From a virus, in IMG/VR virus record IMGVR_UViG_3300022928_000019, positions 1 to 64,000 of that record: a DNA stretch of 64,000 nucleotides; one strand, written 5' to 3'. The position numbers were made by a program, and so were the translations under genes. Positions 29,012 to 47,454 of the stretch are shown one piece after another. A model generated the notes under the pieces. That model was given only the letters and a program-made list of their open reading frames with translations. It searched no databases and was not told the origin of the DNA. The stretch's first letter is position 1. The number at the start of each line of letters is the position of its first letter.

Positions 29012-29032
29012 GATGTAATACAGGTATATAGG

Positions 29033-31769: not shown

Positions 31770-31781
31770 AGTTTTCCTTTC

Positions 31782-32408
31782 TTATTTTAGGTTAGTTATT
31801 TTATCCATTACTTGATCGAATGTCTTGCTACCGAATCGTAGCATTTTAGCCGTTATCTTTCTCTTTGCATAGTTCTTGAACTCCCAAGAGAACAATCCAT
31901 TAGCTACGCTGAATGCGAAGTACATAGGATCTTGATTCCATCCTCTCCTAGTGTGCTTGACATCATTATCGAAACACCAATCGACTGCTTGATCAACCAT
32001 CCTACAGGCTTTACACCATGCATCGATCTTCTCTTTGTCTGTGTTGGTCGGGAGAATATGATACCCTCCACACTCTATGAAACAACCAGTCTCGGAGTTA
32101 AGCGTGGAATCCAATATGATAAACTTGCCCTTTGCACCTGCATTTATTTTTGCATAGTCAAAGCAATAGAAGTCATCACCTGATCCACACGCATAGTAGA
32201 GATGCCCATAAGGACTTGTAAGGTTGTATAGCTCAATGTCATTAATCTTATAGTGTCCTTGGTCATCCTGTGGTATGAGCCATGGTTTCAGACTGCCATC
32301 TCTGTGGTCGTAAGGATCAAGTAATCGCTTGTCCTCACTCATTGGGTAGTCTGTTATGTGACATTGGTATGCCACCTTGCTAGTTCCTAGGTCTTTGTAG
32401 TATCCCAT
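31782..32408 (-). CDS. Hypothetical protein
   Basis: 208-aa ORF in the early operon. Confidence 0.6.
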   Translation of the reverse strand: MGYYKDLGTSKVAYQCHITDYPMSEDKRLLDPYDHRDGSLKPWLIPQDDQGHYKINDIELYNLTSPYGHLYYACGSGDDFYCFDYAKINAGAKGKFIILDSTLNSETGCFIECGGYHILPTNTDKEKIDAWCKACRMVDQAVDWCFDNDVKHTRRGWNQDPMYFAFSVANGLFSWEFKNYAKRKITAKMLRFGSKTFDQVMDKITNLK

Positions 32409-32410
32409 TA

Positions 32411-32686
32411 TTAGTTCTCCGTTTGCAGTTCATACTCAACATCCTCAGCACACATCCTAATCGTACCAAGCACTCCCTGGATTTCAGCTAGAGCTTCTCT
32501 TGCGGTCATCCACCCTTCTTCACCCCTTGGGTAATGGTTACGCCCATGGAATGAATGACTAGGTATCTTTTGGATAGCACTATCAATAGCAGAATAAAAC
32601 TCCTGCCACTCATTTATTAATGTTTGTTTGTCATCACCATTCATATGTACGAATGGCATGACTGCGTCCTTGTATATGTATTTCAT
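32411..32686 (-). CDS. Hypothetical protein
   Basis: P.VHMNG...L...HGRNHYP conserved phage pattern. Confidence 0.65.
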   Translation of the reverse strand: MKYIYKDAVMPFVHMNGDDKQTLINEWQEFYSAIDSAIQKIPSHSFHGRNHYPRGEEGWMTAREALAEIQGVLGTIRMCAEDVEYELQTEN

Positions 32687-32688
32687 TA

Positions 32689-33114
32689 TTAGTCCTCCGT
32701 TTCTATTCTAGTTGGTTCATGTTTGATTTCTTGTGGTGCATGATACCACTGGGTGTGTTCAACAGTTCCTTTCTCAAGGTCATATGTGAAGTCATCACCA
32801 TAGTCAGTGCCATCACCGGCCCCATTGTAGTACCCACCAGGGTAGTCAGCCCAACGATCAATCATATCCCCGGCCTTTTGGACGGCAGCCTTGGTAAGAT
32901 CTCCATGAGGCTTACCATCAAGCAGAATATCATCATGCTCGTTGATATCACCATAGTAGTATCCCTCATCGGATCCACCTGAGTACGATATCGTGAACTT
33001 AATTACGCCATGCTCCTTGAGGTAGTTTAATAGTTCCTTGGTCAATGGCTTAGGCCCATTGCTCCAATCCCACTCTTCTTGTCCTAGGTTAATGCTTGGT
33101 TTGTCTTCACTCAT
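32689..33114 (-). CDS. DUF6878-like protein
   Basis: ISYSGGSDEG motif; likely start MSEDK at 33114, coupled to the upstream gene. Confidence 0.6.
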   Translation of the reverse strand: MSEDKPSINLGQEEWDWSNGPKPLTKELLNYLKEHGVIKFTISYSGGSDEGYYYGDINEHDDILLDGKPHGDLTKAAVQKAGDMIDRWADYPGGYYNGAGDGTDYGDDFTYDLEKGTVEHTQWYHAPQEIKHEPTRIETED

Positions 33115-33485
33115 AGTATTTCTATCTCCTTTTTGGTTTTGTAGCCGACTTTTAACATCCAATCGGCAGGTTGTTGTTTGATTCCCCTTAGCCAATCTTG
33201 TGGCGTGGGGATAAATCCGCAGTCCTCCATCACATGTTGCTCGGCAACTAGCTTGGTAGGTACTATTCTGAATTTGTCTCCATTATCATCTTGATCAATT
33301 AATATCTCGTGACCGAGTATGCTACAGCACCACTCAATCCCGGCGCTATGATGTCTTAATGCGCGATGAGTCCAATCACCTGTAAAGGCTTTGGTCTCAT
33401 CGAACCAGTTATGTACATAAAGATATTCATCGGGTTCTCCTCCGAACTTCTTTGCTGATGATTCTGCGTGTTTATATGGTGTCAT
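33111..33485 (-). CDS. DUF6915-like protein (His-rich, possibly metal-binding)
   Basis: HAESSAKKFGG..H.WFDETK..HRALRHH..GI..AEQHVMEDCG.IPT..DW. Confidence 0.75.
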   Translation of the reverse strand: MTPYKHAESSAKKFGGEPDEYLYVHNWFDETKAFTGDWTHRALRHHSAGIEWCCSILGHEILIDQDDNGDKFRIVPTKLVAEQHVMEDCGFIPTPQDWLRGIKQQPADWMLKVGYKTKKEIEIL

Positions 33486-33616
33486 TTATTTTCCTCCTTT
33501 AGTAGTTCTGTGTATCTTCTGATGAAGTGCCTAGCTGCGTAGTACTCCTCTGTGGTAAGTTCATTCTTTCTCCACATAGATTCAGCTTCAGCTTCTAGTT
33601 TCTCTTGTATATTCAT
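33482..33616 (-). CDS. Small hypothetical protein (44 aa; not in ORF track)
   Basis: MNIQEKLEAEAESMWRK...; its 3' end carries the AGGAGG SD for the next gene. Confidence 0.5.
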   Translation of the reverse strand: MNIQEKLEAEAESMWRKNELTTEEYYAARHFIRRYTELLKEENK

Positions 33617-33649
33617 ATATTTGATCCTTCCTATCATCGCCCCCAACCG

Positions 33650-33681
33650 TAGTAGCAACCTAGAGAACTAGGTTACTACTA
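33650..33681 (-). promoter_or_regulatory. Motif copy embedded in an extended hairpin
   Basis: agtagcaacctag-agaa-ctaggttactact. Confidence 0.6.
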
Positions 33682-33693
33682 GGGGGGTGTTTG

Positions 33694-34488
33694 TTATCCC
33701 TGAATATTAAACTCTGCTGCTAACTCTTCGAACATCTTGTCCCATGTGGAACTGCTCTCGTAGTAGGTGAGGGCAAAGCGTATAGCCTCATCTCTTGCAC
33801 TATGATTTTCCCAAGATAGAAGCTCGGTGTGCAACTGAAACACGGTATAGTTGTTGCCCCATGCCTTAATCTCATCCTTGAGTTCCTCGGGGATTGTTTC
33901 CTCGGGTAGTAGTTTTGCTAAATCCCTAAAGTGACAGCTAAGATTCTCGGCATCGCAAAGGTCACTATCGGGTGATGAGACATCAAGGCACTCCTCTATA
34001 GCATCAGGCTCACAGAATTCGAAGTCTCCTTCCCCTGACTCCGTTGCATTGACAAGTAGTTGCCTAAGAGGGTCTGGGGTAATCTTATCGGATGTCTCTT
34101 TCTCTAGTGTATACTGGAATTTCTGAAGTATACCATCTACCTCTTCTCTACTCTGCTCTAGTTCTTCACATGCACTCGTGAATTTGTCTCTAGCCCAATT
34201 ATACTCACAAGCCTTTTCGGAGTACCAAGACTCTAGTTCATCGTATGCTTCCTCTAGGTCGTTGTACTTTCTAGAAGCATTATCTTGTGCGTCGATGTAA
34301 TCCTCGATGCCCTTGCGTTCCTCTGCGGTAAGAGTCAAGCCATACTCTCGGCATGCCTTCTCAGCTTGGGCTATTTCCCTGAGCCTCGATTCGTTGGCTT
34401 CTCTTATCCTCGCTTCCTCGGCTTGTTTAAGTAGCTCTTCAGAGCTTGCGTTAACTACTGCGGTTTCTTGGTTATTTTGATCACTCAT
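33694..34488 (-). CDS. Highly acidic coiled-coil protein
   Basis: 264 aa, E/D-rich. Confidence 0.65.
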   Translation of the reverse strand: MSDQNNQETAVVNASSEELLKQAEEARIREANESRLREIAQAEKACREYGLTLTAEERKGIEDYIDAQDNASRKYNDLEEAYDELESWYSEKACEYNWARDKFTSACEELEQSREEVDGILQKFQYTLEKETSDKITPDPLRQLLVNATESGEGDFEFCEPDAIEECLDVSSPDSDLCDAENLSCHFRDLAKLLPEETIPEELKDEIKAWGNNYTVFQLHTELLSWENHSARDEAIRFALTYYESSSTWDKMFEELAAEFNIQG

Positions 34489-34506
34489 GGTTATATCTTT
34501 CTTATG

Positions 34507-34758
34507 TTATTTGGTTATTTGGGTTACACTTAGTTCCCTTGTATTGCATTTAATATCAAGGGTTATATCGTCCTTCTTGAATCGGAGGACGAAAGGTTTC
34601 TTTTTGAAATGGATGAACTCACCGCCATCCTTCTCTACTGCTTTGCGAGCATGATCTTCATAGTCAGACCAATCCTCGTACATCCATTCATCTCTCCACC
34701 TATCGAAGAGATACTCAATGGTTCCAGTTAGTTTTTTGGCTAATTCTTCAGCACTCAT
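34507..34758 (-). CDS. Hypothetical protein
   Basis: YL.DRW.DE..YED..DY conserved phage pattern. Confidence 0.65.
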   Translation of the reverse strand: MSAEELAKKLTGTIEYLFDRWRDEWMYEDWSDYEDHARKAVEKDGGEFIHFKKKPFVLRFKKDDITLDIKCNTRELSVTQITK

Positions 34759-34961
34759 CTGTCTTCATCCTCCTTGTCGAAGTATTGGGTTACGAAGTAA
34801 TGGTAATCAGAGCTACACTGCTTGTCTGATGCTGCATAATCGAAGGCACCCTCTTGCTCTTTGAACATACCGATCACGCCTTTGAGGCTACCATCGAATG
34901 GGCAGGTAAGAACTATCGCCCATCTATTACTCGGCTTGCACTTGCACTCGCACTCAGTCAT
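34755..34961 (-). CDS. Hypothetical protein
   Basis: 68-aa ORF in a coupled series. Confidence 0.55.
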   Translation of the reverse strand: MTECECKCKPSNRWAIVLTCPFDGSLKGVIGMFKEQEGAFDYAASDKQCSSDYHYFVTQYFDKEDEDR

Positions 34962-35394
34962 TGTGTATACCCTCCCTTGCTTCTGCTACCTCGATGCCCG
35001 ACTCCTCATCCTCATCCTCACCCTCATCTGATGCCGTGCCTCCCTCCTCATAGTGGTAGTAGTTCTGCTTGCGAAGGAACTTGGCACACTCAATCCATAG
35101 CTCATTAGATATGAGAGGGATAGTGAATGACTCACGAGATCCATCATGCTCTAGTCGCTTCTTCTCTTCGGCTAGTATCTCTTCCTCCTTGGCAATCACT
35201 TGATCGGCAAACTCATTGATTGCCTGGATGATGAATGGCCCGATCATCGGGTTAGTGTAGTTGCAAAGGTATCTGAGATACTCACCATTGCTCATGCTAC
35301 CACCCATCTCGGGGTCTTGTGACTTGATTGGTTTTCTTTCCACAGCGTGTAAGCCTGGAATCCTTTTAAGTTTAATGTTACTTGGATCACTCAT
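34954..35394 (-). CDS. Hypothetical protein
   Basis: Likely start MSDPS immediately after the motif at 35395-35416. Confidence 0.6.
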   Translation of the reverse strand: MSDPSNIKLKRIPGLHAVERKPIKSQDPEMGGSMSNGEYLRYLCNYTNPMIGPFIIQAINEFADQVIAKEEEILAEEKKRLEHDGSRESFTIPLISNELWIECAKFLRKQNYYHYEEGGTASDEGEDEDEESGIEVAEAREGIHND

Positions 35395-35412
35395 GTTATT
35401 CATATATCTAGG

Positions 35413-36120
35413 TTACGCTAACGCCATAGCGATAGCTTTGTTTTTCTTAGCACCATGTGGGTTGATCCACACAGACTTAGCGTTCTTGTTGTTGCCATCA
35501 CACAGTCCACAATCCTTACACTCCTTGCCATGCGTATCGGATAGGCATTCGATTGTATCGATTGGGCGTACAGGTGAGACATGGAAGTATCTAAGACCAA
35601 GTGACTTTGCAGCCTTGCGAGAATCCTCCGTCTCAGTACTAGCCATAAAGTACTTACCATACTCAGTAGCTAGGGTAGGGGACATCATATGCCAATCATG
35701 GAAGTATCCTGTCCAACCGGCACAATGGTCAGTCACCATCTTAATCTTCTGCAAGGGAATGATACTAGGGTTACCATAAGCACCGAACCTCACATACCGA
35801 TTACGGAATGCTACCTTATATGCACCAAGGGCAAGGAAAGGATAGCTACCCTTATGGTATGACTTGTACACAGCCATAGGTGCTTGCCCTACATTGACAT
35901 AGCACCCATTGCCATCAGCGAATGGGCATCCATTGCAGTTAGTCTTAGCATCTAGTCCTGTTGCAACAGACTCAACAGGATTGGTGAATCTATTTAAGAT
36001 CCATATCTGAGCCATGTTACCTGTCTTAGCATTAGCTGACTTCCAAGTAACGATAGCTACATAGTCATCGTCCTCATAGATACAATGCCCACCACTTGTG
36101 AATGAATTTTTTACATACAT
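35413..36120 (-). CDS. Cys-rich Fe-S / radical-SAM-like phage protein
   Basis: NAKTG, C..CP....CYV, VRFGAYGNP, GY.H.W, C......C..C.LC....H; AAAGGAGG SD. Confidence 0.6.
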   Translation of the reverse strand: MYVKNSFTSGGHCIYEDDDYVAIVTWKSANAKTGNMAQIWILNRFTNPVESVATGLDAKTNCNGCPFADGNGCYVNVGQAPMAVYKSYHKGSYPFLALGAYKVAFRNRYVRFGAYGNPSIIPLQKIKMVTDHCAGWTGYFHDWHMMSPTLATEYGKYFMASTETEDSRKAAKSLGLRYFHVSPVRPIDTIECLSDTHGKECKDCGLCDGNNKNAKSVWINPHGAKKNKAIAMALA

Positions 36121-36297
36121 AATTCTAGTCCTCCTTTAGTTTAGTGTTAATGAAGTCATAGGTTATCCCATGCTTCTTTGCTTGGTTTACTGCTATTTGT
36201 GTAGCCCTCTCGTGTGCATCAGAGTCTGACTTCTTAGCTATGTAGCTGAAAGAATACACGAGTTGCTTGTCCTTGATAATTGATACTTCGATAGTCA

Positions 36298-36612
36298 TCA
36301 GAACTCCGTATTTATAACTACTCCACCATCATAGCTAATGACTGTCGTATGATTACTTAAGATATCAATGATTTCATCATCATCATACTCTTCATCTTCA
36401 TCAAAGAGATGCTCGTAATCATTTTGCAGATCACCTATCGAATTGTAGTCAGAGTATTGGCAATCAAGTGCCACTACATCTAACTCATAGTTAGGGTCTA
36501 CGTCCTCGAGGAAATCATATAGAGCCTCGAGTCCTCTTAGAGACCAAGAGCTTCCCCTTGCTCGCTGATCGAATGCGTTAACGAATAGTCCTTGTGTTAT
36601 TGTTTGTATCAT
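36298..36612 (-). CDS. Acidic conserved phage early protein
   Basis: F..AF...R...S..GL.ALYD.L....ELDV.A..C.Y pattern; strong SD. Confidence 0.7.
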   Translation of the reverse strand: MIQTITQGLFVNAFDQRARGSSWSLRGLEALYDFLEDVDPNYELDVVALDCQYSDYNSIGDLQNDYEHLFDEDEEYDDDEIIDILSNHTTVISYDGGVVINTEF

Positions 36613-36627
36613 AATTATTTTCCTCCT

Positions 36628-37074
36628 TTATTTGTTGTGATAATGAATGCCCGCATGCCCTTTGGTGTAAGCCTTTGCATCTTCTAGTGAACTGAATCCA
36701 CGATAGATGGATTCCACGCAGTCCTCTTCTCTGTCAGGGTAGTACTTGACTACATCGAATGTTCCATCCTCTTGGTCTGTTACATAGTAGTCACCTTCCC
36801 AAAGGTTAGGTCTTCTGAATCCGTAATGGTATGCTTGCACAGACCAATCACCATTCAGCCCACACTCTTGCCAAGCGAAGTAATCAAAGATCCGATCAAT
36901 CGAATCCATCAATCGATTATGGTGAGAGTATTCGGTTACCAACTCCATGCCCTTGACATGCTTGTCGTGCATGTAATCTTTATGAATACACCCAAGTTCG
37001 ATGAGCATAAGATTCTCATTTAACCCTTCGGCTAATGTCTCAGATATTGTCTCTATGTAGTATGTAGGATTCAT
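36628..37074 (-). CDS. Hypothetical protein
   Basis: Motif at 37077-37098 directly upstream. Confidence 0.6.
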   Translation of the reverse strand: MNPTYYIETISETLAEGLNENLMLIELGCIHKDYMHDKHVKGMELVTEYSHHNRLMDSIDRIFDYFAWQECGLNGDWSVQAYHYGFRRPNLWEGDYYVTDQEDGTFDVVKYYPDREEDCVESIYRGFSSLEDAKAYTKGHAGIHYHNK

Positions 37075-37077
37075 ATG

Positions 37078-37278
37078 TTATTTATTATTCTTGGTTACTT
37101 TATGGTAGTACTCACGAGCATCCTCGTAGTTGAATGTATTGATAAGCCCACGCTTGGAATGGGTGACGATAGCTATTTGCCAAGGCTTAATGTTTGGATA
37201 CTTGTGCTTGGCTATCTTGCCTAGGTAGTACACATAGTTATCCACCTTCTGATCCATTTGAGCATTAGTCTCAATCAT
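37078..37278 (-). CDS. Hypothetical protein
   Basis: GGAGGT SD; ATGA coupling. Confidence 0.6.
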   Translation of the reverse strand: MIETNAQMDQKVDNYVYYLGKIAKHKYPNIKPWQIAIVTHSKRGLINTFNYEDAREYYHKVTKNNK

Positions 37279-37997
37279 GCTACCACCTCCTTGTAGAAGG
37301 TGTAAAAGTCACCGATTGGTACTTTCATATTGAAGGCTTTGCCTCCACTCCCACTCCCCTTGCTATTAGCTCTACTAAACCACTTGGTTACCTCGATATA
37401 CTCACTGCCGATAGAGAACCACCACTCTCCATACTCAGCCCCTCGAGCATCAATAGCAGTGTAGACCCAACCTTCAGTATCTTTATTCCATGTTGCCCAC
37501 TCTGGAAAGCGCTTGGCTACAAGCCCGAGCCTTTCCTCCATAAGCAATCGAACCTTTTCACCATGAAAATCTAGATGATTGGGGTGAAAGGAACTAGCTA
37601 AGTACTGAGGGTCACCGAAACAACTCTCACCATAAGCAATGAGGTTGTTGACCCACTTGAACAAGCCACACTCACCCTCGAGTATGGCATCGTTGCCCAT
37701 GATTAAGGCATCATCTAGTTTATCATCGGCATTGCGATCCTTGTGAGCCTCGAGTAGATGCTCATCATATGGAAAGCCAAACCAATGAGTGGCTTTATCC
37801 CCACAAGTAGTCCCAATGTAGTATTGGAACTCAACGATATAGTCATTGATAACATCCATGCACTCCTCGGCACTTAAGTCACGAGCTTGTGATGAACTGA
37901 CATAGTCTAAGTGCCTAAGCATCTTGCGTGTAAGTTTGATAGCCTTGGTTTGCAAGGTCATCTTTGGGTAAGGTTTGTATTTGTATTCTTCAGTCAT
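37275..37997 (-). CDS. Hypothetical protein
   Basis: AAGGAGGT SD; 240 aa. Confidence 0.65.
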   Translation of the reverse strand: MTEEYKYKPYPKMTLQTKAIKLTRKMLRHLDYVSSSQARDLSAEECMDVINDYIVEFQYYIGTTCGDKATHWFGFPYDEHLLEAHKDRNADDKLDDALIMGNDAILEGECGLFKWVNNLIAYGESCFGDPQYLASSFHPNHLDFHGEKVRLLMEERLGLVAKRFPEWATWNKDTEGWVYTAIDARGAEYGEWWFSIGSEYIEVTKWFSRANSKGSGSGGKAFNMKVPIGDFYTFYKEVVA

Positions 37998-38006
37998 GTT
38001 ACCTCC

Positions 38007-38777
38007 TTAGTTGAGTGTTAATTTCATTTGATTAGGGTGATCCCTAAAGACATAGAGCATGCGAGGCTCATCCTCGCAGTCGAAGTGTGCAGTAGCCTCG
38101 GCATCAGTGATGCGTGATATCTCCCATGATCCTTCGATGATTGACTCACCGACTGCTAGATCCCTAGCAATATCGATGACCCTATCCTTGACATAGCATT
38201 CCCACATAGCTTTCTGAATCTCGGCAGATGATGGGTAGCAACCCTCGCTATGGTAGTACCCATTCTCATTGAGATAGAATGCAATGTCATCCCAATCATC
38301 GAAGTCCTCACCGACATTGAAGTCATCATCGTACTCCAATTCAATCAGTTGAAGGAGATCCTCGTACTCACGCCTCGAGTGATCTTCTTCATCTAGGCAA
38401 GGATAATTGGCTAGCGATGCTTCAATCTCCTCACCCATCTTGAATGCCTCCTTGTCATTGATATCTACAGATAGATACTCAATCCACCCACATAACCAAT
38501 GACCCACACGAGTAATGTCATAGGGTAGCTCGGCATCTTCAAACATCTGCACCGCACAATCCCAATTAGAATTGGTGAGCATAGATGAGTCACGATTCCT
38601 ACCGAGTACACAATACAAGGTATCACTAGGCTTCTCGCCCATGTAGTTGCTCCAAGAATCGAAGGCACTTGGACTGCCTAGTTCATCAATTAGCTTAGGT
38701 AGGTTGGTAGAAGGAAAGCGCTTAGCAAGATAGGCATCAAGCTCAGCACCTTCAAGTTTGATATTATTTTCACTCAT
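38007..38777 (-). CDS. Acidic conserved phage early protein
   Basis: RDS....SNW...HW.CGWIEY...L.NYP.LDEED.S.RE pattern; motif at 38781-38802 upstream. Confidence 0.7.
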   Translation of the reverse strand: MSENNIKLEGAELDAYLAKRFPSTNLPKLIDELGSPSAFDSWSNYMGEKPSDTLYCVLGRNRDSSMLTNSNWDCAVQMFEDAELPYDITRVGHWLCGWIEYLSVDINDKEAFKMGEEIEASLANYPCLDEEDHSRREYEDLLQLIELEYDDDFNVGEDFDDWDDIAFYLNENGYYHSEGCYPSSAEIQKAMWECYVKDRVIDIARDLAVGESIIEGSWEISRITDAEATAHFDCEDEPRMLYVFRDHPNQMKLTLN

Positions 38778-38781
38778 AATG

Positions 38782-39219
38782 TTATTTAGTATAATAGGTT
38801 ACGTTTAGTTGAAGTTTGGTAGGGTTATAGTCGCGGACATGGAACATTAGTTCATCACCAACTTTAACTCCATCCCATGGGGCATCATCTTTATGTAAGA
38901 ATCCCATACGCCCATGATCTAGATCAATCTGCCAACCATCACCCACATAGTCATACACCATCCCACGTACATCCTTACCAAGGATTTCCTTGAGCTTGCG
39001 TGTATAATCCCATTCCCCTCGGTGATACCATATGTTGGTTTCGTATTGATACTTTACTCCGTTAGCTTCACATAACTCACGAGTATACTTCTCGGCATCT
39101 AACTTAACCTTGAAGTAAGGAGTCTTTACATAACACCTACCACTCCCATCATCTATGAAGATAGATCCGAAGTATCCTCTGTCTTCTCCATCCTCTAATT
39201 TTGTAAATAAATTTTCCAT
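38782..39219 (-). CDS. Hypothetical protein with possible S1/OB-like C-terminus
   Basis: GMVY....G..IDL...GFLH.....KVGD.L...V pattern; motif at 39220-39241 abuts the ATG. Confidence 0.6.
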   Translation of the reverse strand: MENLFTKLEDGEDRGYFGSIFIDDGSGRCYVKTPYFKVKLDAEKYTRELCEANGVKYQYETNIWYHRGEWDYTRKLKEILGKDVRGMVYDYVGDGWQIDLDHGRMGFLHKDDAPWDGVKVGDELMFHVRDYNPTKLQLNVTYYTK

Positions 39220-39346
39220 GTTATATAGATATATAGGTTACTTTTAGATTATGCAGCACATTTCTAGTACTACCGCGATGATGCAGACTAGGAAGCCTCC
39301 ACCTAAAACAATTTTGTCCATGGTACTACCCATGAACTGAGGGTCA

Positions 39347-39487
39347 TTAGCATTCTTCATGTAAGACCCTCCTCACTTCAGCTTCATCGTTACGTTTGAT
39401 TGCATCCACAACCATGCCATTTTCCATGGCAATATCGGGATCAATAAAGAACTCACCACATATGGCGAGGAATGTTAAGTAGTTCAT
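39347..39487 (-). CDS. Small hypothetical protein (46 aa; not in ORF track)
   Basis: MNYLTFLAICGEFFIDPDIAMEN...; GAAAGGAAA upstream. Confidence 0.55.
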   Translation of the reverse strand: MNYLTFLAICGEFFIDPDIAMENGMVVDAIKRNDEAEVRRVLHEEC

Positions 39488-39529
39488 AGTTATTTCCTTT
39501 CGTTGTTTGGTTAACGTTGAGTCGAATTT

Positions 39530-39574
39530 AAAAAGTAAAGCCCATGCCCAAGGAATAAGCCTCGGACATGGGCT
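39530..39574 (-). terminator. Intrinsic terminator
   Basis: Minus strand agcccatgtccgagg-cttatt-ccttgggcatgggct followed by TTACTTTTT. Confidence 0.75.
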
Positions 39575-39582
39575 GAAAGTTT

Positions 39583-39640
39583 ACGTCTAGGTGACGTAGT
39601 TTTAACGTAGTTATGACGTAGTTCACACGTAGTTCTAACG
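39583..39640. repeat. 11-bp-period direct repeats, core ACGTAGTT x4 plus degenerate copies
   Basis: Cores at 39594, 39605, 39616 and 39627. Confidence 0.9.
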
Positions 39641-40217
39641 GATGAGCTACATCGGGTTGCATTGCGATAAGTATGAACATCCTCTAGGGAATACATACTA
39701 TACTGCTTCCATGTGTTGACTATTCTAACCCCTTCGCTCCATGACAGAGAGACCTAGTTTGTTCCGAGTAGTCATTGACAAACTAAATCCGAGGCACGCC
39801 TCCTATCGATCAGATTACACACTCTTTCGCATACATGAATATCCTCACGGCTCCTTACACGCTTCGTCTGCTTCCACGACTCACCCCGAACCACTTCGGT
39901 TGGCTACTCGCTTTGTGACTAGGCTACACATTCGCCTTGTATGGTACTTGCCTGCTCGAAATCGAACCGCTCACATGTGCATAGCTTTGTAAGAGCTAGA
40001 GCATGGTCTACGTCCGTAATCCCGAATTGACAGCCTCAGTTTTTCACCCTTGGCACAGGTACTTTTTTGAAATGGAAAAGCAGAAAACCATGAGAACTAA
40101 AAAACGAAGTTAGGCATTGATGCGTTGCACGTCTCACCGAGACACTAAGCACAATCTGTGCGTCTCACGCTAGCCTAGGTTAGGCTTAGTTTGCTAAGGT
40201 GGTTTATATATCATGGC

Positions 40218-40245
40218 TAGGTTAGGTTAGGTTAGGTTAGGTTAG
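40218..40245. repeat. (TTAGG)n pentamer repeat, about 5 copies
   Basis: taggttaggttaggttaggttaggttag. Confidence 0.9.
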
Positions 40246-40673
40246 AATTCTAAGCCCATTGCCTCGCGTTGCTCGGGGGTAAGGTTTGCTACAATTCTCT
40301 CGAGTTGATCTAGCCTTGTAGCTTGTTTATTAATCACGTCTTGCTTTGTGATCTTGGGCTTATTGATAGAGATATTTAGCTTATTAGACGTCTCAGAGAT
40401 CTTGTCAGTCACGCCGTCTTGCAAAGCTTTGTTTACCATTGCAATTGTAACCGCGTCTCGCATGGTTTTCTCACCGCTTAGAACATTATGAACGGCTGCA
40501 GTTAAAGCTTTGCCTTTCAAGAGCGGATTTGCTTTGCGAAGGTTTGCTTTTATTTCTGAAGCGCTAGCACCTTGCTTGCCGAATACAACTTCGTGTCGTA
40601 TTACTTTGCCGTTTTTATTTAAGACTTCACGACGTGCTTGGGTATGGGATTGAATTAAGGATAGGTTGCTCAT
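40242..40673 (-). CDS. First early gene, basic hypothetical protein
   Basis: 143-aa ORF starting the minus-strand early block. Confidence 0.65.
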   Translation of the reverse strand: MSNLSLIQSHTQARREVLNKNGKVIRHEVVFGKQGASASEIKANLRKANPLLKGKALTAAVHNVLSGEKTMRDAVTIAMVNKALQDGVTDKISETSNKLNISINKPKITKQDVINKQATRLDQLERIVANLTPEQREAMGLEF

Positions 40674-40736
40674 TGTTATTTTGATATTTGATTGATTAAT
40701 ATTTGCGCCATAATTGACATACTATTTAATGCCATG

Positions 40737-40815
40737 CATACCCATTGATTATCAATGACTTATGGCATAAGTGTTACCTAATGACCATTAGGTTACAAAG
40801 GGGGGTGCCGGGGGG
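40737..40815. promoter_or_regulatory. IHF-like sites, motif variant and G-runs at the strand divergence (possible terminus/pac region)
   Basis: TATCAATGACTTA (40750-40762) matches WATCAANNNNTTR; GTTACCTA-N8-TAGGTTAC; G6-TGCC-G6 at 40800-40815. Confidence 0.45.
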
Positions 40816-40894
40816 AAGCAACCTGGCGTCTTATACAATTATATACACCCTTTCTGAACTTTCTGGGATCTGATCCGATTCGGGTTTATAGGAT

Positions 40895-40930
40895 TTGACC
40901 GAATGAAAGAAACCTAGTAAACTAAGTAAC
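40895..40930 (+). promoter_or_regulatory. Sigma70-like promoter overlapping the motif
   Basis: TTGACC-17 nt-TAAACT; GAAACCTA GTAAAC TAAGTAAC; same geometry as at 1661. Confidence 0.65.
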
Positions 40931-40941
40931 AGCATTGATGA

Positions 40942-43233
40942 ATGAATCCAGCAATAGAACAGGCACGAGCTATAGCCAGGGCAGAGGCATCCAGAATTGC
41001 AGCACAGGCGAAGGCACAGCAGCAAGCAGCAAGCGATGCTGCTCGAGAAGCTGCACAAAGAGCAGCCAACGAGGCTGCTAGGCAGCAAGTAATAGAGGCA
41101 TCAAGACAGGCAGCAATAGACCATGCAAAAAACCAAGCAGCAGAGCAAGCAAGACTACAGGCAGCAGAGGAAGCTAAGCGTATTGCAACAGAGCAAGCTC
41201 AGCAAGAGGCAGCAAGGGTAGCTCAGCAGGAGGCAGATAAGAATATGGATTTTAATGCATCTGATCGTTTTAGGGACTTTAACGATAATTATGGAAGTGA
41301 TTATGGTTCATCATACAACTACACCGATACTTATTCGGCTCCCTCATACGACACATACACACCATCATTTGATACCTTTGATTACCTAGATACGATAAAC
41401 ACTTATGATGCCTTTGATACTGCATCAAACTATGCAAATTCAGTAGCATTAGATAACTACAACTACTCGGATAATGTAAGTGACTTTCTAGACACATACG
41501 ATTCGGACTACTTTGACCCCAACACATATATTGATTTAAGCACAGACGCCATCGATACTGACTTTAGTCAATCAATCATAGACAATTCATACGGAGGTGA
41601 TTTTGATGCAGGTCTAGATATCGGGCAGACCTTCGATTATCTTGACGGAGTAGATATTAATTCTGACGACTTTAGTAATTACGATGCATCTACTCAGTTT
41701 GCAGCACAAGATGTTAGCACATTCGATGAAAAAGAATTAGATATTCTTAAGAGTGTTGGAGCGATTGAAATTAATGAAGATGGTGCAGTAACTGACTTTG
41801 ATTCACAGAATGCCCTTAGGCAGATTGAGGATCAGTTAATTGAGTATAGAGGGGATCTTTCAGATGAAGAAATTACTAATCTGACTAGTTTAAGAAATGA
41901 AATTCTTGCTGCTGAAGATTTAGGCTTGGATGCATTTAGCATTGATATAGCAGATCAGCCATCATCTGCGCTCGCAGGTGAGGGCGGCTCGGTCGGTCTA
42001 GTAGGCACTGATTTCAGCAATAAGTTCTTGTTCTCTGGTGATCCGGATTATGAAGAGAGTAAGCTAAACTCTCTCAGTGCTGGTTACATTAACGAAGGCA
42101 ATGCTGCAAAGAATAGCCAGATATATGGCAATACAGGTGGCAAATTTAATATTTATGGTGAGCCAGTAGACATGAGGACTAACCCTGCTTTACAGGGAAT
42201 GAGTTTTCAGGCTACACCGAACGCAGCTGGATCGGTCATCCAGGGTGTAGACACATTCACTGATTATCTTCGTAACGGAGCCGGAATGCTCCTTAAGCCA
42301 GTTAATTGGCTTTCTGATGGCATTGGAGGTGGCTTGGATGCCATAGGTGGTGCTTTGGGTAACAACCCCATAGGTAGAGGCTTCTCGAGCTTTGGTAACA
42401 TCGTAGACAACACAGGTGATTATCTTTTTGGTAGTGGTGATCGAGATAGTTTATTAGGCACTGTTTTCAATGTACCCGATAACCTTACCAAAACGGTTGC
42501 AGGTGGGCTTTCAGGGAATTGGGACGTTGCGAAGCAAGGATTAAAAGGATTGGTTGCTGCTCCCTTTGAATTAGCAGGTAATGCGATAAGCGTTCCTGTT
42601 GCGATTGCTAAAGATGTATTTGGGGTGGATGATATATCACTTAGTGTTGGTGGTGGTTCCGGAGGCGGTGGAGGCGGTGGGGGTCGCAGGATGCCTAGTC
42701 GTCAAGCTCCACAGAGAAAGAAGATAAGCAGGGTACTTGGCTCAGGAAACTCTAGGGAGGGCATCAGTTCAGTGAGCGGGTCTACGGTAGGATATGCAGG
42801 CAATGAGTATGATATGTCTACTGCTAGTGGTCAAAAATCGCTCCTTAATGATTCTGACTTTCCCACACTTGCTGACGCTATTGCTCAAACTGGTGGCAGT
42901 AGTTTATTGTCCGATGATCAAATTAGGGGTCTCGTAGGTATGGGTAATTCTCCTGGTGCAGGGCCTAGCTCAGGTACTGCTGATGACCCGATTGGATCTA
43001 CTGATGTAGACAGAAGTTCTTTAGCCGAAAAATTTGAAGAAAAACAGGGTGGTGAAAAACCTAAGGTAAAGAAGACTGCCCAAGTCGAGAGCATAGAAAA
43101 CATTATAGACAAGTTAGCTAATGGATCTGTTAGAAAAACTAAAGCTGCTCCTGCATTACCTACTACTTCTACCGGGAGCGAAAACTTGGATATATTTGAC
43201 AATGATGCGCCTTTGATTGGTGAAAAGGATTAA
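40942..43233 (+). CDS. Low-complexity 763-aa protein, possibly virion-associated
   Basis: A/Q/E coiled coil, D/Y/S-rich block, Gly-rich amphipathic block, poly-G. Confidence 0.7.
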   Translation: MNPAIEQARAIARAEASRIAAQAKAQQQAASDAAREAAQRAANEAARQQVIEASRQAAIDHAKNQAAEQARLQAAEEAKRIATEQAQQEAARVAQQEADKNMDFNASDRFRDFNDNYGSDYGSSYNYTDTYSAPSYDTYTPSFDTFDYLDTINTYDAFDTASNYANSVALDNYNYSDNVSDFLDTYDSDYFDPNTYIDLSTDAIDTDFSQSIIDNSYGGDFDAGLDIGQTFDYLDGVDINSDDFSNYDASTQFAAQDVSTFDEKELDILKSVGAIEINEDGAVTDFDSQNALRQIEDQLIEYRGDLSDEEITNLTSLRNEILAAEDLGLDAFSIDIADQPSSALAGEGGSVGLVGTDFSNKFLFSGDPDYEESKLNSLSAGYINEGNAAKNSQIYGNTGGKFNIYGEPVDMRTNPALQGMSFQATPNAAGSVIQGVDTFTDYLRNGAGMLLKPVNWLSDGIGGGLDAIGGALGNNPIGRGFSSFGNIVDNTGDYLFGSGDRDSLLGTVFNVPDNLTKTVAGGLSGNWDVAKQGLKGLVAAPFELAGNAISVPVAIAKDVFGVDDISLSVGGGSGGGGGGGGRRMPSRQAPQRKKISRVLGSGNSREGISSVSGSTVGYAGNEYDMSTASGQKSLLNDSDFPTLADAIAQTGGSSLLSDDQIRGLVGMGNSPGAGPSSGTADDPIGSTDVDRSSLAEKFEEKQGGEKPKVKKTAQVESIENIIDKLANGSVRKTKAAPALPTTSTGSENLDIFDNDAPLIGEKD

Positions 43234-43633
43234 GGAATTCTTAAGAGTTGTTAGGGAGGAGCGTGGGTCTATTAGCCTACCTTCTGCAATACTAGTTTTA
43301 GCAAGGCTTACTATAAAGCTGTTGCCTTATTGGTATCTTGCCAAAAAGCCCGAGAAGCTTGAATGGATGAGGAGGTACAAGGTATGTTATAACTGCCCTG
43401 TATTCGATCCCGAACTTAAGAGGTGTAGACCTTACGGTAACTCAGAGCAAGGGTGTGGATGCTACACTCCTTTCTCGAACTTAGTTTATGATGAATGCTG
43501 GGGAAGAATTAACTACGGAAAAGCTATCGGGTGGTCAGTCCATGATCACGAGTCGTGGATTGTCCGTATTCGTAATGGACAGAGAGGTATCTCTCGAAGG
43601 GGATCAGTGGAGAAACGAGACTGGACTATTTGA
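43217..43633 (+). CDS. Cys-rich small protein (putative Zn-binding)
   Basis: R...CYNCP....C......CGC......C..W; start and end uncertain. Confidence 0.55.
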   Translation: MVKRIKEFLRVVREERGSISLPSAILVLARLTIKLLPYWYLAKKPEKLEWMRRYKVCYNCPVFDPELKRCRPYGNSEQGCGCYTPFSNLVYDECWGRINYGKAIGWSVHDHESWIVRIRNGQRGISRRGSVEKRDWTI

Positions 43634-43742
43634 TAGCCTAGAAGAGGCAGTAAAGGACTGCTTGAGGCTCGAGGTTGAGGCAAATGCACCCGAAGACCTT
43701 AAGGGTTTATATGATGTTAGTATACAGTTAGACGCCAAGTGA
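43488..43742 (+). CDS. Hypothetical protein
   Basis: Overlaps the previous ORF; GTGA coupling to the next. Confidence 0.4.
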   Translation: MMNAGEELTTEKLSGGQSMITSRGLSVFVMDREVSLEGDQWRNETGLFDSLEEAVKDCLRLEVEANAPEDLKGLYDVSIQLDAK

Positions 43743-44056
43743 AGGGTCTGAATGCTCCCGATTACATCAGGGAAATAAGAGCAGTAGAAGGGGAGGGGGA
43801 AGTTTATTTAAAGTACTACTCTGAACTCATGGGTTATCAAAATATCGGGCTTAGATTAAGCAAAACAGGCAAATTGCCAAATATCCCTACAAAAGCCGAC
43901 AATATGGCAGATGCTACGCTATTGTTAGAGGCATGGAACAAGTGGTTAAGAAAGGAATCCATACATTCATATGGCAGTCAGAAGAAACGCTCATCATCGC
44001 GGAAGTCAAAGGACAAAACTTCGACTGGAGAACCTTTTTTCACCTTTATGAGTTAG
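43739..44056 (+). CDS. Hypothetical protein
   Basis: 105-aa ORF. Confidence 0.55.
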   Translation: MKGLNAPDYIREIRAVEGEGEVYLKYYSELMGYQNIGLRLSKTGKLPNIPTKADNMADATLLLEAWNKWLRKESIHSYGSQKKRSSSRKSKDKTSTGEPFFTFMS

Positions 44057-44120
44057 GACATGAATATGTCTTTGCTGTTATGCCACACCTTAGGAACTTC
44101 ATAGATATACATGCAGAAGA

Positions 44121-44426
44121 ATGAAAAGAAACACTCCACTAAAAAGAAAAAAGCCGATGAGGAGGGTATCCAAGAAGAGGCAAGCAGAGTCCAAAGAATA
44201 TTCGAGGAAACGCTCGAGCTTCCTAGCCACATTGCCATTATGCGAGGTCTGTGCAAAATCAAAAAGTACAGACATTCATCACCGAAAGGGAAGAGGCAAG
44301 TATTACCTAGATGAAGGTACTTGGCTTGCAACATGCCGAGGATGCCATGATCGGATTCACAGGAATCCGACTTGGGCTAGGGAAAAAGGCTTTATACTAG
44401 ATCGATACGTCGATAAAAATCAATAA
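44121..44426 (+). CDS. HNH endonuclease
   Basis: CEVC...DIHHRKGRG...WLATCRGCHDRIH. Confidence 0.85.
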   Translation: MKRNTPLKRKKPMRRVSKKRQAESKEYSRKRSSFLATLPLCEVCAKSKSTDIHHRKGRGKYYLDEGTWLATCRGCHDRIHRNPTWAREKGFILDRYVDKNQ

Positions 44427-44468
44427 TGTAACCATGTATAGAATTATATGTTCACAGCTCATACATGT

Positions 44469-44669
44469 TCATAGCTCATTATCATCTTCCTCTAGGGAAG
44501 TGCCTTTGAGCCTTCTGATATCTTCTGTTGCTTGAACGGCTTTTTGCCGAGCATCAGATTCGACATCGATACATAAGTTACGCCATTGCTCTAACGAGTG
44601 AATTCGATCCTGTACCGTCACCCCAAGGGTGTCGGGAGCATAATCCCCATATGTCAATGCATACGTCAT
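44469..44669 (-). CDS. Hypothetical protein
   Basis: 66 aa; motif copy at 44711-44732 upstream. Confidence 0.5.
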   Translation of the reverse strand: MTYALTYGDYAPDTLGVTVQDRIHSLEQWRNLCIDVESDARQKAVQATEDIRRLKGTSLEEDDNEL

Positions 44670-44731
44670 TTAGATAATTGGTTATCAATACAATAACCAA
44701 TTTACCTAAAGTAATCAAGATAAATAGGTTA

Positions 44732-45790
44732 CTAAGTTATCCCGTAAGTTCCTTTTTGAGTGTCGTAGATAGATAAAGCTTCTGCAGCGCTTAAAGCTTT
44801 ATTCGTGTATACATCTACCTGCCCAATGTGACCATGAAAGTTTACACCCTTGAGAGTGTAATACTGTCTGCCTCCAATCATAAAAACATCATTATTATAC
44901 CAGTTAAAGGTAGTATCAGTTCTCCCTATGTAAGGTCTCAACCTCTCCTCGTCAGTGAGACCTGCAGTTATAGTTGTCTTTGACTCATATTGTCCATCAA
45001 GCCATAGATCAATAGATCCAAGTGAATTACCAGGATCTATGCTCCAAGCCATATGGTGCCATGAATCTACGACAAAATCACTAGCTAATTGTGTTTTTAA
45101 AACTTTTGCTGTGACGGCATTACTGTTTCCACTCATCTGTACACCTGCCCCAGTGAATGTTGTGCGAAAACCGTGAGGGTTGTACTTATAGCAGGTTAGC
45201 GAAAATACGGTGTCATAAGAACCCATACTAGCAAAGTTGCTCAAAGGTTCCATTGATACTAAAATGCCATTATTGAGGGTAGAAAAATACCCATTTATTC
45301 GCAGACTATCGCAAAGGAGATACTGGCTTCTCGTACTATGATCGAGTCCATCAGCAAGGCCTAAGTTTGGCTTAAACCAAATAGATCCAGATTTTGGCAC
45401 TTGTTTTCCCACGGAGGTATACTCTTCTCCAATTCCTTTATTTGAAAGGAGGTTGATACTGTTTTGAGCAGGCGAGCCAGCATTGTTCGCAGTTACATGA
45501 CCTGGAAAGAAGACGGTTCCATCTGGTTCCACTGTGAATTCCTTTTGTAGACCAAATGTCGCAGGACTGAAACGAATACTTTCGGTAGTGTCAGTAATAG
45601 GAACACTTACAGTATTTCCTGCATTGATGTCGTCTATCTGTGATGCACTAAGATTACTTGTGTTAAATGCATAGTGTTCTCCGGCGGGGGCTGAAGTGTA
45701 TACTGATGATCCGTTGTAAACTAGTTCGTTTACCGTATTCCCATTGTAAGTCAAACTTGTGACGTCGACCCCATTGTATTTAATTCCCAT
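44732..45790 (-). CDS. LamG/concanavalin-A-like domain protein (putative receptor-binding protein)
   Basis: SIWFK, WHHMAWS, LWLDG, IGGR, FHGHIGQV.VY..ALSAAE; likely start MGIKYNG. Confidence 0.75.
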   Translation of the reverse strand: MGIKYNGVDVTSLTYNGNTVNELVYNGSSVYTSAPAGEHYAFNTSNLSASQIDDINAGNTVSVPITDTTESIRFSPATFGLQKEFTVEPDGTVFFPGHVTANNAGSPAQNSINLLSNKGIGEEYTSVGKQVPKSGSIWFKPNLGLADGLDHSTRSQYLLCDSLRINGYFSTLNNGILVSMEPLSNFASMGSYDTVFSLTCYKYNPHGFRTTFTGAGVQMSGNSNAVTAKVLKTQLASDFVVDSWHHMAWSIDPGNSLGSIDLWLDGQYESKTTITAGLTDEERLRPYIGRTDTTFNWYNNDVFMIGGRQYYTLKGVNFHGHIGQVDVYTNKALSAAEALSIYDTQKGTYGIT

Positions 45791-45831
45791 AAGGTTTATT
45801 TTAAGCTTAAGCGAATCTGTTATCAAGTATA

Positions 45832-46299
45832 TTAAGTAACATTAAATGCCTTCAGATTCCTTTGGTCTAGGCAGTATCCTTTCCCATGACCCAAGTCCTT
45901 AATATTCTCTTGTCGAATCAAGTCCTTCTTCCATGCCCAACCTTTAATGTCTACCGACCTTCCATCGACTATTGCGAGTACATAGAAGTCAATATCTTGG
46001 TTAACTTTAAGTGTACTTAGAAGCCTAGCATTAGGGTAGTTAGATGATTTTATATCATACCTATTCCCTTTAAGAACTCCATCGTAACTTCCGCTTCTAG
46101 CTTCGGGAGCAAAGTCAGGGAAGCAATTAAACTTCTTAGCGAATGCATACTCAGCTACTGCTCCCATTACATCTGCTTCCGAGCCATCTTGTTTCCCCAT
46201 CTTGGCATCCTTTACGCCTGTGCCTCTACTTATAAGGCTCCTCATCCTGCCTAGGATTTGGCAGAGGTTGTACTCTGCTTCTGTAAGCTCTAGTTTCAA
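45832..46299 (-). CDS. Phage PD-(D/E)XK-like protein
   Basis: G..AEYAFAK...D......DIKS....L......D.YVL....GW. Confidence 0.6.
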   Translation of the reverse strand: MKLELTEAEYNLCQILGRMRSLISRGTGVKDAKMGKQDGSEADVMGAVAEYAFAKKFNCFPDFAPEARSGSYDGVLKGNRYDIKSSNYPNARLLSTLKVNQDIDFYVLAIVDGRSVDIKGWAWKKDLIRQENIKDLGHGKGYCLDQRNLKAFNVT

Positions 46300-46829
46300 A
46301 CTATTATTTCCTTATCAATTTGATCCTCTGGTAACCCACACTCACTTGAGTGACTATCTTCTAATGGCTTAAAGCTATCTCTCTTGATTCTCCATACCTC
46401 TCCCCCTAAATCGTGGATCATCTTTGCCTCATTCGGGAATCGGATGTCATCTACTACGCATCTGAAACATTGGTGATCTGTAGCACTTGCCCAGGCTATT
46501 AGGTCTGCGATCCTGTCGTGAACAGGAGCGATCCATATGTCTGGATGCATCGCTCGTCCCCACTCAGTCCCCAAGGTCTGTAAACAGTGCCTAGCTGTTA
46601 TGCCCTCGGGGAACCCTGGAATCTGTTCTTCCTTTAAGTTGTATAAATACTTTGAGGGTATGATTACCTCCAGCATCTTCTTAATCGGTAAAGAAAGACT
46701 TAAAATTTCTCCGCCAATCTTTTGCGCGAATGTTGTTTTACCAACACCTTTGGGGCCGGTAAGTCCTATTACTGAGGGGAGGGTAAATTCTTCTGAATTA
46801 ACTGCCTCACTGATCTTATATGTCTGCAT
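46296..46829 (-). CDS. Deoxynucleoside monophosphate kinase
   Basis: GLTGPKGVGKTT, R..LQTLGTEWGR, DDIRFPNE, HSSE. Confidence 0.9.
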   Translation of the reverse strand: MQTYKISEAVNSEEFTLPSVIGLTGPKGVGKTTFAQKIGGEILSLSLPIKKMLEVIIPSKYLYNLKEEQIPGFPEGITARHCLQTLGTEWGRAMHPDIWIAPVHDRIADLIAWASATDHQCFRCVVDDIRFPNEAKMIHDLGGEVWRIKRDSFKPLEDSHSSECGLPEDQIDKEIIV

Positions 46830-47014
46830 ACTTTAAATGGTTTTTTTCCTGCCTTTAGTTTAGGGCCAATTTTAAAATGGAAATACTCACATGAACATTC
46901 ACCGAATCCGTCATATTCTTCTAGATCCACTAGATGTACATTTTGTGGGTTTTGGAGTGATGTTAAGAGAAACCTTTGTGCCTCAAGATATTGTACCTCA
47001 AATTGAGTACTCAT
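46769..47014 (-). CDS. SWIM zinc-finger protein
   Basis: CSC..F...CRH motif. Confidence 0.7.
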   Translation of the reverse strand: MSTQFEVQYLEAQRFLLTSLQNPQNVHLVDLEEYDGFGECSCEYFHFKIGPKLKAGKKPFKVCRHIRSVRQLIQKNLPSPQ

Positions 47015-47237
47015 TGTTTCTTAGAAAACTAGGTTTCACTCTGGGAATACCTGTTCCTATTCTTTCGCCATTTTTATCCCAACCGCGGATTTGATCTTTT
47101 GCCCAGAATTTATCTACTGCTTGATCAATCTCTAACCTTATTTTGTGAAACTCCCCGGGCGAGAAATAAAGGGGCAGGGGAATTTCCCCCGCCCCATATG
47201 ACCCTACCCCAAGGTCATGAAGTAGATTCTTGTCCAC
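46998..47237 (-). CDS. Hypothetical protein
   Basis: Coupled series. Confidence 0.5.
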   Translation of the reverse strand: MDKNLLHDLGVGSYGAGEIPLPLYFSPGEFHKIRLEIDQAVDKFWAKDQIRGWDKNGERIGTGIPRVKPSFLRNNEYSI

Positions 47238-47454
47238 CTTCGATTACCTGAAGCTTACTTTTAAGCTCTAGGTTTTCTACCTTGGTGGCAATTGCCTCAA
47301 TTTTCTCCAAAATAGACTCAAGTCTTTGATACGCCTCGCTTCGAGACATGGCATTATTTCCAACAACATTAAGCTTTTGCTCCAAAGTGAGTGAGTCCCA
47401 CTTTTTAGCTGCTTCTTCTTCTGCAGTTTGTTCTTCTGTTTTTTCTTCGCTCAT
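47215..47454 (-). CDS. Hypothetical coiled-coil protein
   Basis: Coupled series. Confidence 0.55.
   Translation of the reverse strand: MSEEKTEEQTAEEEAAKKWDSLTLEQKLNVVGNNAMSRSEAYQRLESILEKIEAIATKVENLELKSKLQVIEGGQESTS

Follow-up and report, generated by a model that had tools for sequence, protein, structure and literature searches.

The window analysed here, 64,000 nucleotides (nt) corresponding to bases 1-64000 of the IMG/VR virus record IMGVR_UViG_3300022928_000019, harbours a long stretch (39530-40245, read on the minus strand) that is non-coding, that is probably transcribed, as its presence in contigs of three RNA libraries suggests, and that by alignment is conserved in two relatives above the level of the adjacent gene. 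The element is real and out of the ordinary, and in this novel lineage of phages it probably serves regulation at the level of RNA. The reading favoured here, tentatively and at somewhat below even probability, is that the stretch constitutes the untranslated tail of the first leftward transcript and acts as a termination gate. Phage genomes seldom contain non-coding stretches of such length, and a role is known for few of them; this one sits where a temperate phage would decide on reading into its early genes. Were the gate reading true, the combination of repeat arrays with a terminator would offer a novel, simple layout in which to study how an uncultured lineage of phages controls termination. 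What limits the claim is a very narrow set of relatives, the neighbouring protein having three among 5.8 billion.

Central to this view is the absence of any credible coding sequence. With its two longest open reading frames (ORFs) discounted, the minus-strand gap of 39488-40241 measures 754 nt and is the longest of the record, which is otherwise tightly packed, the five other gaps above 200 nt spanning 235-343 nt. All six frames of 39480-40260 carry 14-21 stops each, and TAA, TAG and TGA are all used in every frame, so that no single stop reassignment opens one. The longest ORF of the gap on the minus strand, of 61 amino acids (aa; 39511-39696), crosses both a repeat array and a terminator, and the longest on the plus strand has 83 aa (39741-39992); neither has a PHROG match. 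Moreover, the positions at which a related contig, X17, differs from the record show no third-position bias, judged by hand, in these two ORFs or in a further one of 40 aa, and the insertions and deletions of X17 in the stretch include ones of 1 nt and 2 nt, that is, non-triplet changes. With its frames closed and codon bias missing, the stretch does not behave as protein-coding DNA, which bears out the statement of an earlier note on this DNA that this is the longest stretch without a credible coding sequence; a codon pattern in the conservation, which by that note would have counted against its view, is not seen. At 46.6%, the G+C content of 39645-40200 ranks at the 95th percentile among windows of the genome, and that of the remaining intergenic stretches is 33-44%.

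The record, of 72,883 base pairs (bp) and an estimated completeness of 96%, reads as a novel phage of temperate type, and the sequencing runs containing it are labelled salt marsh. Its plus strand encodes a terminase, a portal-like protein and an ORF of 3,632 aa; a tyrosine integrase gene lies at 23854-24894, and an SNF2 helicase, a methyltransferase-like protein and a replication/recombination block (SSB, DnaB, RusA, a DUF2800 nuclease and Rad52) are also present. Minus-strand genes extend from 40673 down to 23854 and plus-strand genes from 40942 on, with a divergent control region of 268 nt (40674-40941) between the two sets. For the stretch itself two relatives alone are informative: L003/L014, a 12,092-nt contig from IMG/VR, which ends about 100 nt into it, and X17, a contig from a DNA run labelled estuary, for which a partial list of differences is at hand. 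From the control region leftwards, the parts of the first unit are these:

40242-40673, minus strand: gene of 143 aa, upstream of the stretch and probably co-transcribed with it.
40218-40245, minus strand: (CTAAC)n microsatellite, period 5, 5.6 copies, 100% matches.
40203-40229, minus strand: motif variant TAACCTAGCCATGATATATAAAC, of the family GTAACCTA-N8/9-(T/A)ATAAC, with no start codon after it; identical in L003.
40128-40198, minus strand: 5' cluster of four hairpins, read from the sequence.
40060-40112, minus strand: U-rich linker, in which X17 has deletions of 1, 1 and 2 nt in homopolymer runs (40079, 40105, 40107).
39645-40059, minus strand: conserved core, G-rich on this strand.
39594-39634, minus strand: array of four AACTACGT words at an exact spacing of 11 nt, just before the terminator.
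39530-39574, minus strand: intrinsic terminator, a 15-bp stem and a U tract.

The stretch thus follows the first leftward gene instead of standing at the very start of the early region, where the earlier note had placed it.

Conservation sets the stretch apart from that gene. Over 39484-40206, X17 shows 45 differences and 8 gap letters in 723 nt, against 76 differences in 461 nt over 40344-40804, which comprises most of the 143-aa gene and the region upstream; DNA identity to X17 is put at 96%, versus 83.5% for the adjacent gene. Past the terminator there are 15 differences in 130 nt (39358-39487), and 171 in 1,956 nt over 36126-38081. The differences within the stretch are spread unevenly: 39530-39644, with the repeat array and the terminator loop, has 16, 39645-39922 has 10 over its 278 nt, and 39923-40206 has no more than 13. 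The repeat array is the most variable part and the 550-nt core the most conserved. The IMG/VR contig carries the 143-aa gene at 82% protein identity, and after the CTAAC repeat 73 of its 77 aligned columns are identical. Its two substitutions there turn GCAC...GTGC into GTAC...GTAC in one hairpin of the cluster and are compensatory, and an insertion of 2 nt adds a T-A pair to the neighbouring hairpin. Since X17 is without this insertion, the two relatives are different phages. In each of them the gene is diverged and the non-coding stretch well kept, and the change from one to the other falls at the same boundary.

This shared boundary also speaks against the view that the stretch is a functionless spacer, be it a gene in decay or mosaic DNA of recent exchange, conserved only through recent common descent. 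Such a view gains from the missing stability signal and family match described below, and from the segment-dependent divergence among these phages, which ranges from 3% to 17%. However, a decayed gene should not outdo its live neighbours in conservation, no other gap above 343 nt is tolerated in the record, and three compensatory changes have accumulated in the hairpins. Overall, a functionless spacer appears very unlikely.

Further, the differences give a modest sign, drawn from ten sites in one relative, of what may be strand-specific selection on RNA pairing. One of the three compensatory double changes in hairpins is that of L003 described above; the other two are found in X17, in the first and last of the following:

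39791-39802, minus strand: hairpin GAGG-CGUG-CCUC, in which the pair 39800/39793 changes from G-C to U-A in X17 (pairing probability 0.98).
39750-39790, minus strand: long hairpin GGAUUUAGUUUGU...ACAAACUAGGUC, identical in X17 and hence uninformative.
39615-39653, minus strand: hairpin GAUGUAG/UCAU, which pairs with two of the repeat words; the pair 39644/39624 changes from C-G to U-A in X17 (probability 1.0), and the pairs at 39638 and 39626 are broken.

The listed X17 differences were mapped onto the minus-strand fold, and pair-breaking changes were counted in 39645-39922 under three folding settings, against a uniform null and a stricter one in which substitution types are kept, each type being moved only among sites with the same base. 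On the minus strand 0, 1 and 0 of the 10 substitutions break predicted pairs, where the uniform null expects 4.5-5.1 (P 0.0008-0.014) and the types-kept null 2.7-3.1 (P 0.008-0.10). The plus strand, serving as control, has 4, 3 and 3 of the 10 breaking pairs, with 4.2-4.5 expected under the uniform null (P 0.26-0.58) and 4.5-4.75 under the types-kept null (P 0.19-0.50). Substituted sites are not depleted from paired positions, 4-6 of the 10 being paired and their mean pairing probability equalling that of the core. The signal lies in the kind of change: compensatory changes, together with changes of A to G and of C to U, after which a wobble pair still forms, but only on the minus strand.

The stretch is also present in RNA libraries. 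Six of the 24 listed runs are RNA libraries, and three of these, from three studies, were compared with 36000-44000. At 100% identity, contigs of run X11 match 39545-40027, those of X13 match 39735-40080, and those of X14 match 39599-39797 and 39894-40137; parts of the 143-aa gene are covered as well. X11 and X14 each have one contig that starts in the 143-aa gene and continues with 53 and 34 further letters, respectively, into the CTAAC repeat, and these letters, if colinear, reach about 40201 and about 40220. This suggests that the gene and the stretch are co-transcribed. A single contig, from X11, ends at 39545. The contigs of the three runs give no cover on 39204-39544 and 42399-44000 and almost none on 36000-39200, and such holes prove nothing, neither an end of transcripts at the terminator nor silent flanks.

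At the downstream border, the site at 39539-39574 forms 15 pairs, nine of them G-C, followed by TTACTTTTTA, and thus has the G+C-rich stem-loop and U run of a Rho-independent terminator. It is the strongest of the 17 terminator-like sites in 23800-43700 and the only strong one on the minus strand, with a local folding z-score of -6.8 to -7.9. X17 retains the stem and departs from the record at the three bases of the loop (39555-39557). The strong terminator that had been noticed from the letters is confirmed. Downstream of it lies a minus-strand block of 16 kb with some 35 genes.

It is from this layout that the gate reading derives its appeal: given a control region, a gene, a repeat-framed RNA, the sole strong terminator and then about 35 genes, a gate is the reading that fits best. 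The first leftward unit would run from the control region through the 143-aa gene and roughly 700 nt of RNA to the terminator, and the RNA would be framed by putative multi-copy binding arrays, with six copies of TAACCTA at the 5' end and, ahead of the terminator, four of AACUACGU spaced by 11 nt. The repeats count in favour of this reading: AACTACGT occurs six times in the window versus 0.85 expected, a count reached in 0 of 100 shuffles, and in X17 its words are better preserved (4 changes in 32 nt) than the 3-nt spacers (4 in 9 nt), two copies being unaltered, a third differing at one position and the fourth at three. The terminator would end the first transcript, and factors bound to the repeats, on RNA or on DNA, would decide whether transcription reads on into the 16-kb downstream block. 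We infer from this arrangement that gene and stretch share a transcript, that the stretch acts as a gate and that factors bind its repeats. Any control would need a factor, given that no self-contained switch is visible and no complementary target was found in the phage genome. The former follows from a scan for antiterminator pairing with the 5' arm of the terminator, in which the best upstream duplex (-18.2 kcal/mol) is no better than shuffles (-18.9 +/- 2.5), and the stretch accordingly lacks the alternative pairing of a riboswitch-type or attenuator leader.

Besides this missing antiterminator pairing, several points weigh against the gate and the selected RNA on which it draws. No antiterminator or RNA-binding protein was identified, and to our knowledge 650 nt far exceeds the need of any antitermination site. 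A DNA palindrome would survive two of the compensatory changes (G-C to A-U and C-G to U-A), out of three, just as well; the pair-sparing test covers 10 sites in one relative, with P up to 0.10 in one folding setting; and the strand asymmetry depends mainly on wobble-compatible single changes. From assembled contigs one can read neither the strand nor the ends nor the level of an RNA, nor its timing, which the earlier note had put immediately after entry, and an RNA library may include DNA. Outside the terminator there is no thermodynamic signal relative to dinucleotide shuffles. Finally, a coding piece, 38250-38692, is equally conserved in X17 (14 differences in 443 nt), and phage mosaicism could be the source of the conservation of the stretch.

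Given that the gate alone does not explain the length of the core, the idea of a free-standing RNA acting in trans stays alive. Such a non-coding RNA of about 650 nt, which was the view of the earlier note, would have its own promoter in the motif at 40204-40229, would be ended by the terminator, and would act on host or phage targets, for instance as an immunity, decoy or anti-defence RNA. Conservation, compensatory changes, the sparing of minus-strand pairs, the raised G+C content and the RNA contigs all agree with it, as do a length well beyond the needs of a cis site and a motif region that, together with the first 70 nt, is identical or nearly so in L003. On the other side stands the promoter itself. 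A motif variant is indeed present at the 5' border (40204-40229), but a promoter role is not borne out: elsewhere the motif directly abuts start codons, at a distance of 0-3 nt, a sigma-70 scan of 40204-40229 gives nothing, and nothing indicates a start of transcription at 40200, two RNA contigs continuing from the upstream gene into the repeat that precedes it. The segment 40138-40206 is, moreover, without an RNA-library contig. We consider this trans-acting RNA rather unlikely, behind the gate.

Folding and family searches lend it no help either. The 671-nt fold has -200.5 kcal/mol versus -194.1 +/- 7.4 for shuffles (z = -0.86, with 4 of 20 shuffles as good), and the plus-strand fold of the stretch has z = -0.25. 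Among 26 sliding windows of 120 nt, z falls below -2 only in the four that overlap the terminator, the other 22 lying between -1.68 and +1.41. The stretch thus does not look like a thermodynamically structured large RNA, and the expectation of folding beyond dinucleotide shuffles, by which the earlier note was itself prepared to be judged, fails. Rfam 15 yields no match in the 64-kb window at gathering score and none in 39450-40300 at E up to 10, so that a likeness to ROOL, GOLLD, OLE or any other Rfam family, for which such a check had been proposed, is not seen; ARAGORN finds no transfer RNA or transfer-messenger RNA gene in the window. Immunity RNAs of the P4 CI type and the P1 c4 type depend on repeated complementary boxes in a leader or target mRNA. 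The stretch has no long inverted repeat besides the terminator, and no opposite-sense match of at least 12 nt to it exists elsewhere in the phage genome, which also leaves a trans-acting RNA without such a target there.

What remains is a set of small hairpins, and we read the RNA as a chain of these and not as one ornate fold. The hairpins listed earlier exist as written; together they amount to no more than chance gives. In the 5' cluster the first is CTTAG-CAAA-CTAAG, and the second, AGCCTA-ACC-TAGGCT, contains the sixth TAACCTA. The third and fourth are GAGAC/GCAC-AGATT-GTGC/GTCTC and GTCTC-GGT-GAGAC, and because GTGAGACG is present twice in the cluster, two hairpins compete for GTCTC. The word TGGAAGCAG does occur in two copies in the stretch, as had been described; one is altered in X17 and the other is not, with no sign of joint constraint. 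TGGAAGCA and GGAAGCAG are each found twice in the stretch and five times in the genome, both strands counted. A pairing of 39877-39893 with 39508-39524 was tried and rejected, X17 altering one arm at six positions and by two deletions and leaving the other arm unchanged.

Of the claim for a new large phage RNA, the non-coding, conserved nature, the compensatory changes and the presence in RNA libraries stand, whereas an excess of folding and a known Rfam family are lacking. A bolder form of the same idea would make the stretch the founding member of a new phage RNA family of about 650 nt, with many small selected hairpins and protein-binding repeats, acting in trans. It would come from the control region of the phage and might, for example, confer immunity, counter defence or soak up proteins like a sponge, instead of being a mere terminator leader. 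This seems improbable to us; if a trans-acting RNA were true, it would be a new phage RNA family.

The repeats invite yet another view, in which the stretch works as DNA: it would be an origin of replication, a site of recombination or attachment, or one of partition, with the repeats as protein-binding iterons and transcription incidental. The four 8-mers of the AACTACGT array are spaced at one helical turn. A second array has the same spacing:

52855-52885, minus strand: GATTACGT, AACTACGT, AACTACGT at 11-nt spacing, with AACTACGT twice at 52859-52877.

It lies 160 nt downstream of a recombinase-like gene of 308 aa, exactly where colinearity with L014 stops. Likewise, the integrase gene has no non-coding DNA alongside, so attP must be elsewhere; the TAACCTA word is also palindromic in the control region; and the compensatory changes preserve DNA palindromes too. 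Against a DNA site, pairs are spared on the minus strand and not on the plus strand, and the 550-nt core is best conserved and the repeat array most variable. Iterons of an origin may be present, but the stretch contains no DnaA box (at most one mismatch), the 21 in the window being the chance expectation; its G+C content is above the genome mean and not AT-rich; and no initiator or partition gene was found nearby. It does not adjoin the integrase gene, as an attP might, being 15 kb away. A DNA-level role is thus also unlikely, less so than a spacer. As for the search for further arrays, the two-copy AACTACGT pattern in IMG/VR gave 10 loci, none having a protein in common with this phage at E<=1e-4, and was set aside. 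One of these loci (about 500-540 of L013), on an IMG/VR contig unrelated to the phage, also shows G-runs behind its two AACTACGT words, resembling the paired ones of the window given further below.

Comparison with known systems helps to place the gate. In lambda, N with nutL-tL1 and Q with qut-tR' and the 6S RNA are cases in which terminated early or leader transcripts gate downstream operons. For IsrK of Gifsy-1, PMC4825925 describes a small RNA that is also a messenger when its terminator is read through. As in these, there is a short first unit beside a control region, a strong intrinsic terminator with a long operon behind it, and non-coding RNA between gene and terminator. Unlike in lambda, no boxA/boxB-like or qut-like element is recognised and no antiterminator gene is identified; and unlike the sites of lambda and IsrK, the stretch is, at 650 nt, about ten times longer, its mechanism being proposed from sequence. 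ROOL and GOLLD are often found in phages and prophages. They figure as large, ornate RNAs in PMC12286853. The stretch resembles them in being several hundred nt long, non-coding and phage-borne, and differs in its lack of an Rfam match, the absence of excess stability and its small local hairpins.

The short asymmetric GTAACCTA word recalls the stoperators of Cluster A mycobacteriophages and the start-associated sequences of Cluster K, the subject of PMC9283540, PMC6550527 and PMC3203893. It, too, stands in one orientation just before many genes and also in the control region, with a six-fold cluster at the head of the stretch. Unlike the mycobacteriophage elements, which are unrelated in sequence, this putative binding word ends 0-3 nt before the ATG and replaces the Shine-Dalgarno sequence. 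Arrays for small DNA-binding proteins are found in the 11-bp repeats of plasmid R1 parC and in the tandem arm-type sites of lambda attP. The AACTACGT arrays resemble these in their direct repeats at one helical turn, in three to four copies and at two loci; in contrast, no partner gene is identified, and the array at hand is part of a transcribed stretch, with a terminator immediately behind it.

The CTAAC microsatellite overlaps the stop codon of the 143-aa gene and yields five overlapping TAACCTA words, which with one in a hairpin make the six at the head of the stretch; L003 has one repeat copy more. We read TAACCTA as a putative protein-binding word rather than a proven promoter. At least eight other genes, all without a Shine-Dalgarno sequence, have the full motif of about 25 nt, GTAACCTA-N8/9-(T/A)ATAAC, in front of their ATG, at a distance of 0-3 nt; genes apart from these have AAGGAGG. 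The sites are:

31315, 34509, 35415, 37097, 38801 and 39240, minus strand: motif sites.
61313, plus strand: motif site.
71387 of the genome, plus strand: motif site.
40773-40800, no strand assigned: palindrome GTTACCTAATG-ACC-ATTAGGTTAC in the divergent intergenic region, with the GTAACCTA word in both orientations.

The motif may act as a stoperator for a repressor or as a start-associated sequence, or leaderless mRNAs may be made from it as a promoter. Since L014 keeps the arms of the palindrome and alters its spacer, 40773-40800 looks like an operator. A second inverted pair of GTAACCTA lies at 21659-21680, after the last gene of the plus-strand structural block. In X17, 38692-39232 (a gene of 145 aa and the start of one of 256 aa) is replaced by 535 unrelated letters, and the junction at 39232 falls within a GTAACCTA motif, which suggests that the motif marks mosaic boundaries.

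The protein of the 143-aa gene has 4 matches at E<=0.001 among 5.8 billion proteins, its own included. It has no Pfam, PHROG or fold match, and the Atlas is without a usable one. Its AlphaFold model (predicted local distance difference test score, pLDDT, 69; predicted template modelling score, pTM, 0.41) has no PDB match at E<=0.001, and the top rows, MarR-type winged-helix proteins at E of at least 0.13, are a hint at most. Against 50,697 phage records, neither blastn with distant settings (39400-40300), megablast (30000-50000) nor tblastn with the 143-aa protein and the terminase found a match. IMG/VR scans with three downstream proteins gave no relatives, and of three probes of 19-20 nt taken from the stretch, one led back only to the contig known before and two to nothing. 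A metagenome scan with a protein alignment gave nothing, and two genome scans were both empty. The single metagenome match of a 20-mer (L015) falls inside an unrelated gene of 388 aa and was dismissed as chance.

Elsewhere in the window, no Pfam family matches the 3,632-aa ORF of the structural block (10336-21234) at E<=0.01. The integrase gene (23833-24919 with its flanks) has non-coding flanks of only 20 nt and 24 nt, so attP does not adjoin it. Across the control region, the first rightward gene (40942-43233) encodes a low-complexity protein of 763 aa with a Q/A-rich repeat head followed by D/N/S/Y-rich and G-rich parts; it has only 36% identity in L014, versus 65-83% for its neighbours, and RNA-library contigs cover parts of its gene. 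The block from 44732 to about 52850, comprising the replication/recombination genes and a gene of 74 aa, is inverted relative to 1-7900 of L014. The 74-aa protein (52160-52384) looks ribbon-helix-helix-like by eye at its N-terminus, has no Pfam match at E<=0.1 and is 84% identical in L014, and is a candidate binder of the direct repeats. Finally, paired G-runs (G6-G8, 4-6 nt apart) occur in two intergenic regions of control type, at 40802-40820 on the plus strand and at 52758-52790 on the minus strand, and both are kept in L014 (about 7560-7590 and about 11400-11425).

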